A stretch of 4,052 nucleotides of DNA from a virus. Its lineage: Monodnaviria > Loebvirae > Hofneiviricota > Faserviricetes > Tubulavirales > Inoviridae. The notes under the pieces were generated by a model. That model was not told the DNA's origin, did not search any database, and worked only from the letters and a program-made list of their open reading frames with translations. The stretch is taken from the IMG/VR virus record IMGVR_UViG_2671181030_000002; one strand, given 5' to 3'. Below, piece by piece: positions 1 through 4,052 of the stretch (positions are counted from its first letter, which is position 1; the number at the start of each line of letters is the position of its first letter). The position numbers were made by a program, and so were the translations under genes.

Positions 1-225
1 ACAGACCGTAATCCACTGGCCCAGGACGTCTTTCAGGCAATGTTGGCATAAATCCAGTTTTAAGCGATTACTGTCACCAAAAATTGAACCGTATCCAGCT
101 AAGTGATTAACAGACAGAAACTCATTGAACTCAATGTCATCTACCACCGTCTTCGCATGGCGACCACAGCGATCGCAGGTCTTCGCACATAACATTACAG
201 TATCGCTGGATGTGAAAAATTGCAT
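1..225 (-). CDS. Hypothetical protein, N-terminal 75 codons only (gene continues past position 1); zinc-ribbon / possible HNH-like nuclease motif
   Basis: Manual translation of the minus strand from ATG at 225..223 gives MQFFTSSDTVMLCAKTCDRCGRHAKTVVDDIEFNEFLSVNHLAGYGSIFGDSNRLKLDLCQHCLKDVLGQWITVC with no stop before the window edge. It is absent from the ORF track, presumably because it has no in-window stop. A GAGGAG Shine-Dalgarno lies 5 nt upstream of the ATG. Two Cys pairs (C17-x2-C20, C60-x2-C63) bracket N40-H41 and N53. Same strand as the phage genes. Confidence 0.5.
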   Translation of the reverse strand, partial: MQFFTSSDTVMLCAKTCDRCGRHAKTVVDDIEFNEFLSVNHLAGYGSIFGDSNRLKLDLCQHCLKDVLGQWITVC

Positions 226-236: not shown

Positions 237-342
237 GTAATGCTGCCGCGCCGAATCAGCAATAACGCTAAAAAAACAGAATTGTTCGGCTTGGCCAACC
301 CCTGACACTAACAAAAGCAAGTTTTGTCACTGTCCGGGGTTA

Positions 343-651
343 TCATATAAACCAATAGACCGTCCTTACGCCATTCTGGTTATCAATAACATAGCCGCAT
401 TGTTTCCTTAAAAATTCTTCTGCTAAATCAATGGCTTTTACAGAAATCTCATAAGAAGGAAGTAAAGTGTATCCTTTCCCTTCACTGGCAGCTGCTTTGA
501 TCGCATCCAGAGTATTATCAATCAGTAACAGAGCAAGTGATGCTTCATTTACCTGAGCCGAAGAACTTCTGGCTGCAAGTGTCATTGTTTTTGCTTCTTC
601 CGCTGTAATCGTTCGTTCTGCCAGAGCAGATAAAATCCCATAAGAATCCAT
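343..651 (-). CDS. Hypothetical 102-aa protein, no recognisable Ff counterpart; candidate accessory/cargo gene
   Basis: Complete ORF in the track (ATG 651..649, TGA 345..343). A GGGGT Shine-Dalgarno-like sequence sits 5 nt upstream of the ATG. Same strand as the phage block, immediately downstream of gIV. The protein is Ala/Leu/Ser/Glu-rich (helical-looking) with a hydrophobic C-terminus; I recognise no catalytic motif. Confidence 0.5.
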   Translation of the reverse strand: MDSYGILSALAERTITAEEAKTMTLAARSSSAQVNEASLALLLIDNTLDAIKAAASEGKGYTLLPSYEISVKAIDLAEEFLRKQCGYVIDNQNGVRTVYWFI

Positions 652-673
652 TAGTTACCCCAATCAATAATGT

Positions 674-729
674 CCATTTGATGGATAGCGAGCAGGGCTC
701 ACGCACCTACCCGCTATCCATCAAAGTGG
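674..729 (-). other. Imperfect inverted repeat / stem-loop (17-bp stem, one bulge, 21-nt loop) overlapping the gIV stop codon; candidate terminator-like or packaging-signal-like hairpin
   Basis: Arm 674..690 (ccatttgatggatagcg) is the reverse complement of arm 712..729 (cgctatccatcaaagtgg) except for one extra base (g726). Loop is 691..711. The gIV stop (TGA, plus 721..723) lies inside the right arm. On the minus-strand transcript the hairpin is followed by a moderately U-rich stretch (ACAUUAUUGAUU). Confidence 0.6.
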
Positions 730-1986
730 ACGAATGATATGTGCTGTAAGCAAAATATACATAATACGCTGTTCATTGCTGTCTGCCTTGCTACTGAAAA
801 TCCAGCCTATAAGAGGAATTTTACTTATAACTGGAACTGAACGCTCGGCATTGCTGAACGATGAATCGATAAGCCCCCCCAATAACAACGTCTGACCATC
901 CTTAATCTGGACTGTCGTCTGAATCTGGCGCTGATTAGTAATAATATCGGATGCCTGATCATCATTGCTGATTGAATCAGCGCGAGTGTCGATAGTCAGA
1001 ACTAGTTGCCCGTTACCCATGACAACAGGCGTTACCTTGAGAGAAACGCCAACATCATGACGCTCGATAGTCTGAAACGGATTATTTACCCCGGCAGATT
1101 CGCCCGTTACCTTTCCGGTGATAAACGGCACATTCTTACCTACGGAAATGTAACCAGTCTGACCAGACTGAGTAAGAATACGCGGCGTTGAAATCACCTT
1201 AGAGCGTGAATTACTCTGGACAGCACGCAGAGACAGCGCCAACACGTTACCATCAAAAATACCAAAAGAACCGCCCGCCGTAGAAAGAGCGCTACCCAGT
1301 GCAGAAGTATTAAAGCCCCCCGCAACCTTATGACCGGATGCAGAACCTGCCGCAAACGATAAATCAACGCCATCAGACAAGCTGGTTTCAAACATCAGCG
1401 ACTGAATGAGAACCTGATCGCGGGCAACATCCACAGAATTGATAAAATCGGACAGAACCGGCAGCAGCTCGTCAGGCGCAGAAACAATCAGCGAGTTATT
1501 GCCTGGATAATCCACGACATTACCACCACCATTAGAATCAAGATAAATTTTAATCAGTTGCTGAACATCGGACGATCTAACTTTTGTCAGCTTAAAATTT
1601 CTGACCGTAAGCGCCACAGGTACTGGCTGGTAAGATGGCTCAGAAGGAAAAGTATCATAAGACTGGTTATCAGAATCATCGGAATCCGAAACCATCTGTG
1701 AAGGTAATTTAGACGGCAAAGAGACTACCGCAGGATTGCCAGAAAGCATGACAAAACCGTTAGCATTCAGAACAGACTTAAAGAAATCATCAATATTTGT
1801 TGGATTAACATCAGCATTAAATACGGTTACGTTTCCTTTAATATCAGGATTAACAATAACAGGCTTGCCAGTTTTTGAAGAATACCACTGAACAAATGAG
1901 CGAACAGATGAATTATTTAAATTAACAGTTTCAGCAGAAACGCAGAATGAATAGGCAAATAAAAAAGCAACAATAACAGAGCGCAT
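721..1986 (-). CDS. gIV: Filamentous phage gene IV protein (pIV), outer-membrane secretin for virion export
   Basis: The ORF-track translation from MRSVIVAFLFAYSFCVSA (signal-peptide-like) onward aligns by eye along its whole length with M13 pIV as I recall it (e.g. GGSFGIF, NVPFITG, GESA.VNNPFQTIER, DGQTLLLGGL, SKIPLIG). I place the start at ATG 1986..1984 rather than the track's 2079, because an AGGAG Shine-Dalgarno lies 10 nt upstream and the signal peptide begins there. Predicted length 421 aa (M13 pIV about 426). Confidence 0.92.
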   Translation of the reverse strand: MRSVIVAFLFAYSFCVSAETVNLNNSSVRSFVQWYSSKTGKPVIVNPDIKGNVTVFNADVNPTNIDDFFKSVLNANGFVMLSGNPAVVSLPSKLPSQMVSDSDDSDNQSYDTFPSEPSYQPVPVALTVRNFKLTKVRSSDVQQLIKIYLDSNGGGNVVDYPGNNSLIVSAPDELLPVLSDFINSVDVARDQVLIQSLMFETSLSDGVDLSFAAGSASGHKVAGGFNTSALGSALSTAGGSFGIFDGNVLALSLRAVQSNSRSKVISTPRILTQSGQTGYISVGKNVPFITGKVTGESAGVNNPFQTIERHDVGVSLKVTPVVMGNGQLVLTIDTRADSISNDDQASDIITNQRQIQTTVQIKDGQTLLLGGLIDSSFSNAERSVPVISKIPLIGWIFSSKADSNEQRIMYILLTAHIIRPL

Positions 1987-2368: not shown

Positions 2369-3088
2369 ATAATAATTAAATCCTCTGTGAACAGAAAATT
2401 GACCGTGCGTGATAAATGGTGGCAAAAGCGAAAATGCGCCATGAGGATAATTATCTGTGAACGCTTGTTTGGTATTGTAAGCAGAATAAAGAGATTTTCC
2501 TGTATATATCCATTTATCAACAGTGATTGAATTAACATTATCACCATATTTGACAATGCCAAAGTGTACCTTTGGTAAAGAAAATCTCGCCCCTGAAACC
2601 AAATTCATAATGGAGCCAACAAAAGGAATGTTTAATTTATCTGAACGGCGACAATAAACAACATGCTCAGCAAGCGCCAGACGAGCTTGCTTATCCATTA
2701 TCGAAATATCCTGAATCAAAAATATAATATCCCAGCCTAATTTTCTGGCATGTAAAAACCAGTCAATAACAGGTTGTCTGTCTTTATCACCCCATGAGCG
2801 GGAATTAAACCAAGTACCACATTCATCAAGTACAAGGAGGCCATTACGGGATTCATCGTAAGATGTATTCCCAATACCAATAGCAAGTAAATCATTTAAT
2901 GAAGGCTTGTCAGGAATGCGAATAACGCGCGTTTTTTTCGCATAACGCCCAACCATAGGCATATTATGCAATTTAAGATCAAGATTAGTGGCAACAGGAC
3001 AACCCTTAGCAAGTCTTTCCTGTATTCTGGAAACACTAACAAGTGTCTTGCCTGAGCCTAATTTGCCTGTTACTACATAAACCGCCAT
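1994..3088 (-). CDS. gI: Filamentous phage gene I protein (pI), Zot-like assembly NTPase
   Basis: 364-aa ORF with an N-terminal Walker A / P-loop (GKLGSGKT) and a hydrophobic segment near residues 254-270. It is collinear with M13 pI as I recall it (MAVY.VTGKLGSGKTLVSV, LLVLDECGTWFN.RSW, QPVIDWFLHARKLGWDIIFL, HVVYCRR). The ATG at 3088..3086 directly abuts the gVI stop. Confidence 0.95.
   Translation of the reverse strand: MAVYVVTGKLGSGKTLVSVSRIQERLAKGCPVATNLDLKLHNMPMVGRYAKKTRVIRIPDKPSLNDLLAIGIGNTSYDESRNGLLVLDECGTWFNSRSWGDKDRQPVIDWFLHARKLGWDIIFLIQDISIMDKQARLALAEHVVYCRRSDKLNIPFVGSIMNLVSGARFSLPKVHFGIVKYGDNVNSITVDKWIYTGKSLYSAYNTKQAFTDNYPHGAFSLLPPFITHGQFSVHRGFNYYMRLTKIYFRKSNRLILMLSFLALGLAFGFWLQSGKNVDEISAIKSAYAEQARAVTPDSSSDLPRLSINSFSQLGFDVSVTFVDAKGMKYQYFDLIKDGYSVDIKDACRVVIRKGRYLQTVTCQE
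1997..2001 (-). promoter_or_regulatory. Shine-Dalgarno (AGGAG) for gIV, embedded in the last codons of gI
   Basis: Plus-strand ctcct at 1997..2001 is AGGAG on the minus strand, 10 nt upstream of the gIV ATG at 1986. It overlaps the gI ...CAG GAG TAA terminus. Confidence 0.6.
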
Positions 3089-3430
3089 TTAAATCACCCT
3101 GTTTGCATAATCAAGAAATTTTTGTTTTAAATCGAAAACAAAAACACTGATACGAGTAACCATAATAACGTTAACACACGCCTGAAAATGGTCAGGCAAT
3201 ACAGACGCCATTAAATGGGAGAAATCAGCAGGTAAACCGTTATACATGACCTCAGCAAGGTACTGCATTAAAAGCGTAACAGTTGTTGTAATTAATGCTA
3301 CCAATGCAAAGGCGATTAATCCTGTTCTGGTAGCAAGTCGAGCTAAAAAACTCGCCACATAGCCAATAAACAAAGGAACAAGACCAATAAGAAAACGCAA
3401 CAATGCAGGAATACCTAATAATAAAGGCAT
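3089..3430 (-). CDS. gVI: Filamentous phage gene VI protein (pVI), minor coat / virion-end protein
   Basis: 113-aa hydrophobic protein MPLLLGIPALLRFLIG..., matching M13 pVI (MPVLLGIPLLLRF..., 112 aa) in length, start and C-terminal FDLKQK/FDVKQK region. The track starts one codon earlier at GTG 3433; I prefer ATG 3430..3428, which overlaps the gIII stop (TGATG). Stop TAA 3091..3089 is immediately followed by the gI ATG. Confidence 0.85.
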   Translation of the reverse strand: MPLLLGIPALLRFLIGLVPLFIGYVASFLARLATRTGLIAFALVALITTTVTLLMQYLAEVMYNGLPADFSHLMASVLPDHFQACVNVIMVTRISVFVFDLKQKFLDYANRVI

Positions 3431-4052
3431 CACTCACCCCCTTTGCGAAGCAATGAAGTTAAAGAAGTAAAGACATACCAGAACGTAAGGCAATAAAAAA
3501 CCCATGAAAGAACATCTTTAATAGTCAGTAATTTATCGCAACCAATATCAATCTGATAAACCTCTCCGGGAAAAATAATAAAATCAGAGCAGCCGTTACC
3601 ATTGGGTAAATTAGGCAGCATAGCACCTTTATTTAAAAATGCTTCCCATAAAGCACCGTGAGAATCCTTTTCAATTCCCAATTCAGAATCAGCTAAAGTA
3701 GAAGCGCCATCTAATTCAGAGTCGCCCTTTCCATAACGAGAATCACCACCTGAAGGGTCAGCAAAACGGCCAGCCCCCCGCGTAAGATTGTTAATGGAAT
3801 CGTCAAGACGATTTATATTATTCCTGGTTTGTTCATCGGCATTTTTTTTATCATCTGATGAAGTGTCTTTCTCCGTTAATTTATCATGAATATCGCTGGC
3901 TATTTTGGGTGAAGCACCTTCGATCGCAGACTGAATATCACCTTTAGAAAGACTGGAACCACTAGAGCCACCGCCAGAACTACCGCCAGAACTACCGCCA
4001 CCGGACTCACCACCGGACTCACCACCGGACTCACCACCGGACTCACCACCAC
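3430..4052 (-). CDS. gIII: Filamentous phage gene III protein (pIII), 3' portion only: glycine-rich linker plus C-terminal membrane-anchor domain; 5' end lies beyond the window
   Basis: The minus-strand frame is open from the window edge (first full codon 4050..4048) to TGA at 3432..3430. Manual translation gives (GGES)x4-GGGSSGGSSGGGSS... and ends ...NGNGCSDFIIFPGEVYQIDIGCDKLLTIKDVLSWVFYCLTFWYVFTSLTSLLRKGGE, resembling the M13 pIII C-terminus (...ANGNG...CDKINLFRGVFAFLLYVATFMYVFSTFANILRNKES). The track entry 3430..3681 is only the tail of this ORF, reported from an in-frame TTG. Confidence 0.85.
   Translation of the reverse strand, partial: GGESGGESGGESGGESGGGSSGGSSGGGSSGSSLSKGDIQSAIEGASPKIASDIHDKLTEKDTSSDDKKNADEQTRNNINRLDDSINNLTRGAGRFADPSGGDSRYGKGDSELDGASTLADSELGIEKDSHGALWEAFLNKGAMLPNLPNGNGCSDFIIFPGEVYQIDIGCDKLLTIKDVLSWVFYCLTFWYVFTSLTSLLRKGGE
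3971..4048. repeat. Tandem 12-nt coding repeats in the gIII glycine-rich linker
   Basis: Four perfect copies of ccggactcacca at 4001..4048, encoding (GGES)x4 on the minus strand. They are preceded by two copies of ccgccagaacta at 3971..3994 (encoding GGSS-type units) and more degenerate copies further 5'. Period 12, in frame. Confidence 0.85.

Follow-up and report, generated by a model that had tools for sequence, protein, structure and literature searches.

A 102-codon gene between the secretin gene and dif of CUS-1/YpfΦ-type inoviruses is a candidate accessory cargo gene

The DNA considered here (the window, 4,052 nt of IMG/VR record IMGVR_UViG_2671181030_000002, assigned to Inoviridae) belongs to a CUS-1/YpfΦ-type inovirus prophage integrated at dif. 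Its minus strand is the phage strand and carries every long open reading frame (ORF). Our subject is a 102-codon ORF (ORF102) that lies between the gene for the pIV secretin and a small gene for a zinc-ribbon protein. Overall, it is best explained as a lineage-restricted accessory gene (“moron”-type cargo) of the dif-integrating CUS-1/YpfΦ enterobacterial inoviruses, a reading to which we give a probability of about 0.55. The parts of this reading are not equally firm. Sequence comparisons make it close to certain that ORF102 is a genuine protein-coding gene under purifying selection, and comparison of related loci makes it very probable that the gene is independent, dispensable cargo. That its product is a protein-binding modulator, which is the specific mechanism we propose, is tentative.

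The gene and its putative ribosome-binding site (RBS) are as follows:

ORF102, 343..651, minus strand: 102 amino acids plus stop (WP_000378924.1, phrog_4115), with a variable helical N-terminus (residues 1–35) and a conserved alpha-beta-alpha-beta-beta domain (residues 36–102)
Shine-Dalgarno-like GGGG(T), 657..661, minus strand: 5–6 nt upstream of the ORF102 ATG, read from the sequence

A complete ORF had been reported at 343–651 on the phage strand by a first-pass annotation of the window, and both the coordinates and the strand agree with ours. The start codon is the ATG at 651–649 and the stop is the TGA at 345–343, on the same strand as the genes for pIII, pVI, pI/Zot, and pIV. The RBS that was considered plausible at that stage is the GGGG(T) run 6 nt 5′ of the ATG. 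The allele found in Salmonella phages has AGGA 8 nt before its ATG, at the equivalent position, and start codon, RBS, and length (102 vs. 103 amino acids) are kept in both alleles. Length alone is weak evidence, because 2% of the shuffled versions of the 495-nt region contain an ORF of at least 102 amino acids. Codon usage is more informative: log-odds trained on pI, pIV, and pVI are +0.18 per codon in the ORF102 frame versus −0.13 to −0.55 in the other five frames.

The selection test compares ORF102 with its sole divergent allele, which comes from dif-integrated inoviruses of Salmonella. The two share 61% amino acid identity, with 0.25 nonsynonymous substitutions per site (dN) and 1.6–1.8 synonymous substitutions per site (dS), so that synonymous sites are saturated. 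The dN/dS ratio is 0.14 overall, 0.08 for residues 36–102, and 0.28–0.38 for residues 1–35. For the other phage genes the ratio is 0.04–0.05 (pII, pV), 0.09–0.10 (pI, pIV), 0.11–0.12 (pVI, pVIII), and 0.24 (pIII). Of the phage genes, only that for the receptor-binding pIII has a higher dN (0.35) than ORF102; the value for pII and pV is 0.07. Because synonymous sites are saturated while dN/dS is low, we take ORF102 to be a real coding gene. It had been proposed that the ORF should be abandoned if it proved to have no homologs, no conservation of its frame, or noncoding codon usage; homologs exist, purifying selection maintains the frame, and the codon usage resembles that of coding sequence.

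The family is narrow. Homologs were sought among 5.8 billion proteins with a word-seeded search and among 1.84 billion cluster representatives with an exhaustive HMMER profile search, and also by a second profile search and a sequence search of the PDB. GTDB genomes, IMG/VR, and metagenome contigs were scanned, as were phage and plasmid collections with tblastn. These searches recovered two alleles only, an Escherichia coli/Yersinia (CUS-1/YpfΦ) type and a Salmonella type, together with truncated, fused, or frameshifted copies. The CUS-1/YpfΦ-type allele is at least 98% identical wherever it is intact, and ORF102 occurs in 49 of 5,426 complete E. coli genomes, always at an identity of at least 99%. 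The first-pass annotation recognized no family, and this still holds for Pfam, NCBIfam, and PADLOC, in which there is no above-threshold match (the sub-threshold noise consists of an S-layer hit with E = 0.0095 and a SHOCT-like hit with E = 0.15 over 17 residues). The one family match is full length, to phrog_4115 (E = 2e-68, residues 1–102 vs. profile positions 1–102 of 102), which is annotated “unknown function.”

The only apparent remote hit, P0011 (E = 5.6e-6), is not accepted as a homolog, since it consists of a tandemly duplicated Dynamin_M fragment (56.6 bits) and its score is the sum of two copies of one 33-residue motif match, owing to the duplication; ORF102 itself has no Dynamin_M match even at E ≤ 10. 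The frameshifted or truncated natural alleles are P0008, P0010, L005, and L033. The frameshifted ones (P0008, P0010) include an E. coli strain with 16 copies. L005 (Citrobacter youngae, 2807–3142) and L033 (3958–4152) are degenerate prophages, in which one deletion joins the N-terminus of pII to the C-terminal part of ORF102 and another takes out the end of pIV and the first 37 codons of ORF102.

The case for cargo comes from a comparison of 47 loci (labeled L below) that were recovered with the secretin as query. Phages with 92%–100% identical pIV share a conserved noncoding scaffold 3′ of gene IV that consists, in order, of hairpin 1, a first variable slot (slot A), hairpin 2 plus a spacer, a second slot (slot B), and CCATCCTTACCATT plus dif. 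The scaffold elements of the window are as follows:

Hairpin 1, 672..731, minus strand: spans the pIV stop codon (721–723) and forms the left boundary of slot A; −24.5 kcal/mol as DNA, z = −7.6
Hairpin 2, 296..342, minus strand: imperfect hairpin of 19 bp, beginning at the stop codon of ORF102; right boundary of slot A and first element of the conserved intergenic/attP-side module
Conserved spacer TTGGCCAAGCCG ... GCTGATTCGGCGCGGCAG, 245..295, minus strand: second predicted stem, between hairpin 2 and the zinc-ribbon gene; backbone, not cargo

Slot A holds ORF102 in both allele groups. In four other loci (L024, L027, L029, and L030) it holds an unrelated and very basic 82-amino-acid ORF (isoelectric point 11.6), and it is empty in L031 and in L032 (the pIV of which is 76% identical). 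No remnant of ORF102 was found by tblastn in the sister phages that lack it. These sisters (pIV 92%–97% and pI 93%–95% identical) still end at dif. ORF102 is thus unneeded for Xer-mediated integration, because sister prophages without it end at dif, and unneeded for export, because they encode near-identical pI and pIV. On the same comparison, neither replication nor assembly requires it. They also led us to reject the idea that ORF102 is a backbone gene, which its position after pIV in phages of both E. coli and Salmonella could suggest. Slot B contains the zinc-ribbon gene in the CUS-1/YpfΦ group only, within the compared loci; in L031 it contains a 67-amino-acid phrog_6642 gene, and in Salmonella-type and other phages it contains unrelated DNA. 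Two properties of accessory genes were thus found, namely location in a variable region flanked by conserved elements (hairpins 1 and 2) and absence or replacement in closely related, otherwise intact phages.

Both boundaries of slot A are themselves conserved structures. It should be noted that ORF102 had been described as directly after the secretin gene and immediately upstream of the zinc-ribbon ORF; the order is correct in both cases, but the gaps are 69 nt, with a strong conserved hairpin, and 117 nt, with two further conserved structures. The loop core of hairpin 1 (GGTGCG..AGCCC) is invariant and its stem is variable, with compensatory double changes at eight of 12 pairs across 12 phages. 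It is kept from CUS-1-type to IKe-like phages (also in L024–L039), and it is probably either a gene-IV terminator or the packaging-signal hairpin that opens the Ff/IKe intergenic region. The arms of hairpin 2 are CCGGnCAGTGACAAAAC...TTTTGTTnnTGTCCGGGG, and the conserved TTGGCCAAGCCG...GATTCGGCGCGGCAG follows it. As RNA, the region of hairpin 2 (120 nt) has z = −3.9; two of 21 pairs are compensatory, and it is conserved in eight loci. Hairpin 2 and the spacer are also present in an inovirus in which pIV is only 28% identical (L069, 5889–5990). The comparison suggests that the intergenic/attP-side module at window positions 245–342 is mobile, and it may be the minus-strand origin.

Between the E. 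coli and Salmonella phages (L001 vs. L002), dS is 0.37–0.38 for pI and pIV and 0.94–1.78 for the other genes (pII, pV, pVIII, pIII, pVI, and ORF102, with ORF102 at 1.78). Given the lower dS of pI and pIV, the phage appears to be a mosaic in which the export module pI–pIV was exchanged more recently than the flanking genes, and the pattern suggests that hairpin 1 is a recombination junction. Incidentally, a 16-nt motif (GGTACAGATTTACCAA) occurs in the slot-B/intergenic DNA of sister phages (at ∼4859 in L024, L029, and L030, at 4689 in L031, at 4352 in L032, and at 4636 and 4739 in L037); it is absent from the CUS-1-type prophage itself.

The ORF102 product has a mass of 11 kDa, a predicted isoelectric point of 4.7, and a net charge of −4.5 (the isoelectric points of the Salmonella alleles are 5.0–5.6). 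Maximum 19-residue hydropathy is 1.2–1.4 across the alleles, so no membrane-spanning segment is predicted, and the N-terminus (MDSYGILSALAERTITAEE) has neither a hydrophobic signal segment nor a lipobox Cys (maximum KD19 1.2). The protein is predicted to be acidic, soluble, and cytoplasmic. The Ala/Leu/Ser/Glu-rich composition of its N-terminal two-thirds and its hydrophobic C-terminal strand (GYVIDNQNGVRTVYWFI) are as first described. In two AlphaFold models, one per allele, the predicted local distance difference test (pLDDT) scores are 72.6 and 67.2 and the C-terminal topology is the same. The C-terminal domain (pLDDT ∼80) comprises a helix (36–56), a strand (61–63), a second helix (71–85), and a beta-hairpin (88–92 plus 95–99). 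Two short N-terminal helices are modeled at low confidence (pLDDT <50 in the Salmonella model). The segment GYVIDNQNGVRTVYWFI, which forms the predicted beta-hairpin, is the most conserved part of the protein and is invariant between the alleles, and a conserved polar/basic patch (R82, K83, Y87, N91, N93, R96) lies at the hairpin.

A structure-based search had been proposed as a check on the identity of the protein. Foldseek was run with both models against the PDB and BFVD, and nothing was found at E ≤ 0.001, so no known fold was assigned. The best PDB match is the N-domain of ribosomal protein S8 (E = 0.08, nonsignificant), followed by weak winged-helix, R3H, and Smr neighbors (template modeling [TM] score ∼0.35, 13%–23% identity). 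The BFVD neighbors are all uncharacterized small phage proteins, at E = 0.006 or weaker. As modeled, the C-terminal alpha-beta-alpha-beta-beta domain fits no known fold.

How might such a gene work? Given that there is no sigma-70-like promoter upstream and that the gene is co-oriented with pI–pIV, ORF102 would be transcribed by read-through from the pI–pIV assembly operon past hairpin 1. Low expression would follow from transcription of this kind. The product would then act in the cytoplasm as a stoichiometric binding protein on a host factor or a competing mobile element, and the outcome could be superinfection exclusion, anti-defense, or modulation of host fitness. Interaction would take place through the conserved beta-hairpin patch, as the constant surface, and the variable N-terminus would be specific to the lineage. 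We consider a protein-binding role the likeliest because ORF102 is acidic, lacks a DNA-binding signature, evolves fast, and is dispensable. Its high dN is as expected of a protein that faces a host or a competitor. Among the “hypothetical” inovirus genes that have been tested experimentally, superinfection exclusion, toxin–antitoxin (TA), and defense-related functions were found (PMC6813254).

Several observations weigh against ORF102 as accessory cargo with such a role. Its G+C content (0.40 vs. 0.38–0.43 in neighboring genes) is the same as in the phage backbone and gives no compositional hint of recent acquisition. Classical morons often have their own promoter, whereas none was found here: the scan upstream of ORF102 revealed no sigma-70-like site with at least nine of 12 matches, the hairpin after the stop codon has no adjacent T-run, and scans of the region for promoters, terminators, and Rfam families were negative. 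However, a promoter or terminator of its own and an atypical composition are common in morons, not obligatory. The frameshifted and truncated alleles indicate that ORF102 is dispensable or decaying in some lysogens. There is no homolog of known function, and no interaction partner is predicted. Finally, the weak Foldseek neighbors of the models are mostly small nucleic-acid-binding domains (S8 N-domain, winged helix, R3H, Smr) and, although none is significant, they fit a regulator equally well.

A regulator is the first alternative to consider. ORF102 might be a small nucleic-acid-binding protein (with a winged-helix-like or S8-N-like alpha/beta domain) that targets DNA or RNA of the phage or the host and so regulates replication, packaging, or Xer recombination, for example, via the intergenic/attP hairpins. 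We regard this as unlikely. The gene does lie between two conserved structured DNA elements, ∼390 nt from dif, and the topology (beta1, a short segment, helix, beta-hairpin) resembles a wing after a helix, with conserved R82, K83, R96, N91, and N93 at the hairpin. The weak neighbors, besides the S8 N-domain, R3H, and Smr, include ArsR, MecI/BlaI, MarR-like, TubR, F-112, and Z-alpha winged helices. However, none of the structural matches reaches significance (best E = 0.08 and 0.27, TM ∼0.35), and the best winged-helix matches have E = 0.55–1.9 and TM ∼0.3. ORF102 is acidic, its would-be recognition helix (VKAIDLAEEFLRKQ) includes D75, E78, and E79, and it has no helix-turn-helix (HTH) match in Pfam even at E ≤ 10. 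Moreover, sister phages retain both hairpins and dif integration without ORF102, so the hairpins do not need it. An Xer accessory or excisionase-like role, which proximity to dif and a loose likeness of the helix plus beta-hairpin to Xis/AlpA wings could suggest, was rejected because sisters integrate at dif without ORF102, the protein is acidic, and there is no HTH match.

Far less probable is a role in morphogenesis or export, for example, as a chaperone of the pIV secretin or pI or as a factor in their assembly. Such a role would suit a gene directly downstream from pI–pIV, on the same strand, and probably co-transcribed with them. However, phages with 92%–97% identical pIV and 93%–95% identical pI do without it, as do IKe-like relatives that have the same hairpin after gene IV. 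With no signal peptide, lipobox, or membrane segment, the product cannot be a pilotin-type secretin partner.

The first-pass annotation speculated that ORF102 is a small partner (toxin, antitoxin, or regulator) of the zinc-ribbon ORF, and co-occurrence of the homologs of the two was suggested as a check. A two-gene module (TA, or effector plus regulator) is plausible at first sight: both genes are small, adjacent, and on the same strand, they always occur together within the CUS-1/YpfΦ allele group, and TA modules are frequent in inoviruses (PMC6813254). However, homologs of each gene occur without the other, and we now consider this reading highly improbable. Salmonella-type phages have the ORF102 homolog and lack the zinc-ribbon gene. 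The zinc-ribbon protein (ZnR77; 77 amino acids, CxxC...CxxC, phrog_5435) has a far wider distribution than ORF102. A homolog with 82% identity lies directly 3′ of hairpin 2 in a distant inovirus in which slot A is empty, and another with 71% identity lies beside YubE and a DNA methyltransferase in a plasmid-like contig. Others are found in Klebsiella IncF plasmids and 7-kb Proteus/Providencia plasmids (50%–64%) and in beta-proteobacterial replicons (36%–55%). No ORF102-like neighbor was found beside the homologs in L069, L065–68, and L070, and ORF102 is absent from 28 of 30 plasmid records with a ZnR77 match. On these comparisons, the zinc-ribbon gene moves between elements independently of ORF102. 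Further, the 117-nt gap with its conserved structured backbone elements is not that of a tight bicistronic operon, the two genes occupy separately variable slots, and Pfam, NCBIfam, and PADLOC contain no toxin, antitoxin, or defense family that matches either protein (Foldseek likewise found none for ORF102).

It is scarcely credible that ORF102 is not functional as a protein, i.e., that it is a chance or decaying frame over cis-acting DNA (an origin or packaging signal): the 2% of shuffles with a frame this long, a family of only two alleles, and some broken copies would fit, but saturated dS (∼1.6–1.8) with dN/dS of 0.14 (0.08 in the C-terminal two-thirds) indicates constraint on the protein rather than the DNA, start codon, RBS, and length are kept, and codon usage is positive in this frame only.

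The other genes of the window are as follows:

pIII attachment protein, minus strand: Gly/Ser-rich, runs past the window end
pVI, minus strand: DUF5455
pI, minus strand: Zot domain
pIV secretin, 721..1986, minus strand: 421 amino acids with Secretin, Secretin_N, and GspD-N0 domains; closes the morphogenesis/export module that lies upstream of ORF102
Zinc-ribbon ORF (ZnR77), 1..225, minus strand: 77 amino acids, the last two codons and stop lying beyond the window start (WP_001159442.1, phrog_5435); slot B cargo, 39 nt from the chromosomal dif just outside the window

The window is 99.3%–99.8% identical to prophages in 56 of the 5,426 complete E. coli genomes, where the prophage is usually present in at least two tandem copies. 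The element in strain UM146 has a complete inovirus gene set (pII, pV, pVII, pVIII, pIII, pVI, pI, and pIV), adjoins hipBA, and has its 28-bp dif site 39 nt past the Cys-rich (zinc-ribbon) ORF. In the window, a tandem 12-nt repeat (ggactcaccacc on the plus strand) at 3960–4052 (minus strand) encodes a Gly/Ser/Glu-rich linker of pIII and is probably a site of length variation among the E. coli prophage copies. An element deposited as a 7,938-bp circular “plasmid” of Salmonella enterica (L064, NZ_CP140410.1) evidently represents this phage in its circular replicative form. As cargo on the attL side it carries the gene for a 244-amino-acid Doc/Fic-family toxin, and UM146 has a membrane protein, the ECs_2282 zinc-binding protein, and a 159-amino-acid protein at that position. 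Because these attL-side genes differ, a third region of variable cargo appears to lie at the left end. A contig binned as “Candidatus Nanosynbacter sp.” (L006, JARKOR010000214.1) contains this enterobacterial phage, with an ORF102 that is 100% identical and a dif site that matches the E. coli type perfectly; the contig is almost certainly mis-binned or a contaminant.

CUS-1 and YpfΦ are reported to be 99% identical (PMC4266046). The phage has reached fixation in the third-pandemic lineage of Y. pestis and is associated with E. coli K1 clones of high virulence, and a fitness advantage in mammalian hosts has been reported for YpfΦ in Y. pestis and for CUS-1 in E. coli K1, with no gene assigned to it (PMC4266046). 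Two attR-adjacent ORFs, YPO2280a and YPO2281, are common to YpfΦ and CUS-1, and their function was described as not predictable (Derbise & Carniel 2014, PMC4266046). They lie where CTXΦ has ctxAB, and the end-of-genome ORFs were named as an open question in that review (PMC4266046). From gene order and position only, we infer that ORF102 is the homolog of YPO2280a and that the zinc-ribbon ORF is YPO2281. In the literature searched, no study addresses the function of YPO2280a, YPO2281, or their CUS-1 homologs. ORF102 is already annotated, as a hypothetical protein in RefSeq (WP_000378924.1), and the literature already treats YPO2280a as an ORF without predictable function. Added here are the selection evidence, the two-allele structure, the exchange-slot architecture, and the independence from YPO2281/the zinc-ribbon ORF.

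Recognition of ORF102 as selected, dispensable, slot-bound cargo narrows the list of candidates for the in vivo fitness effect. It is otherwise an ordinary annotated hypothetical phage ORFan, the mechanism of which is not derivable from sequence or predicted structure. A more ambitious proposal, which we hold to be doubtful, is that ORF102 founds a new fold-level family of inovirus effectors, cytoplasmic proteins that would bind a host or rival-element target and lead to exclusion, anti-defense, or a gain in mammalian-host fitness. If this were true, ORF102 could supply the unexplained host fitness advantage of YpfΦ/CUS-1 from the ctxAB-equivalent position.

The closest known counterparts of ORF102 are YPO2280a of YpfΦ and its CUS-1 homolog, which likewise come first of the two ORFs that separate the secretin gene from attR/dif; there is no difference in sequence class, the assignment being by gene order. 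The ctxAB genes of Vibrio cholerae CTXΦ are similar in being cargo that follows the morphogenesis/export genes, on the attR side of an inovirus that integrates at dif via Xer, and dispensable for the phage cycle (PMC4266046). However, they share no sequence or structural similarity with ORF102, which lacks a signal peptide and is no AB5 toxin. The type II TA modules of inoviruses (PfiT/PfiA of Pf4; 15 TA pairs, Roux et al. 2019, PMC6813254) are also small accessory genes in variable regions of temperate inoviruses, but ORF102 differs from them in having no conserved partner gene, no tight or overlapping operon, and no match to a toxin or antitoxin family. The S8 N-domain and winged-helix domains have the same order of elements (alpha-beta-alpha-beta-beta) as ORF102 over ∼62–65 residues, although the matches are nonsignificant (E = 0.08–1, TM ∼0.35), ORF102 is acidic, and no sequence family backs the likeness. 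PfsE, which is very small and resides in the inner membrane, has type IV pili as its target; ORF102 differs from it in being soluble, acidic, and unrelated in sequence. By analogy, the most likely functional class of ORF102 is that of the inovirus superinfection-exclusion proteins (PfsE of Pf phages, PMC8764522; two hypothetical proteins tested by Roux et al.), which are small, lineage specific, and act on processes of the host or of competitors.

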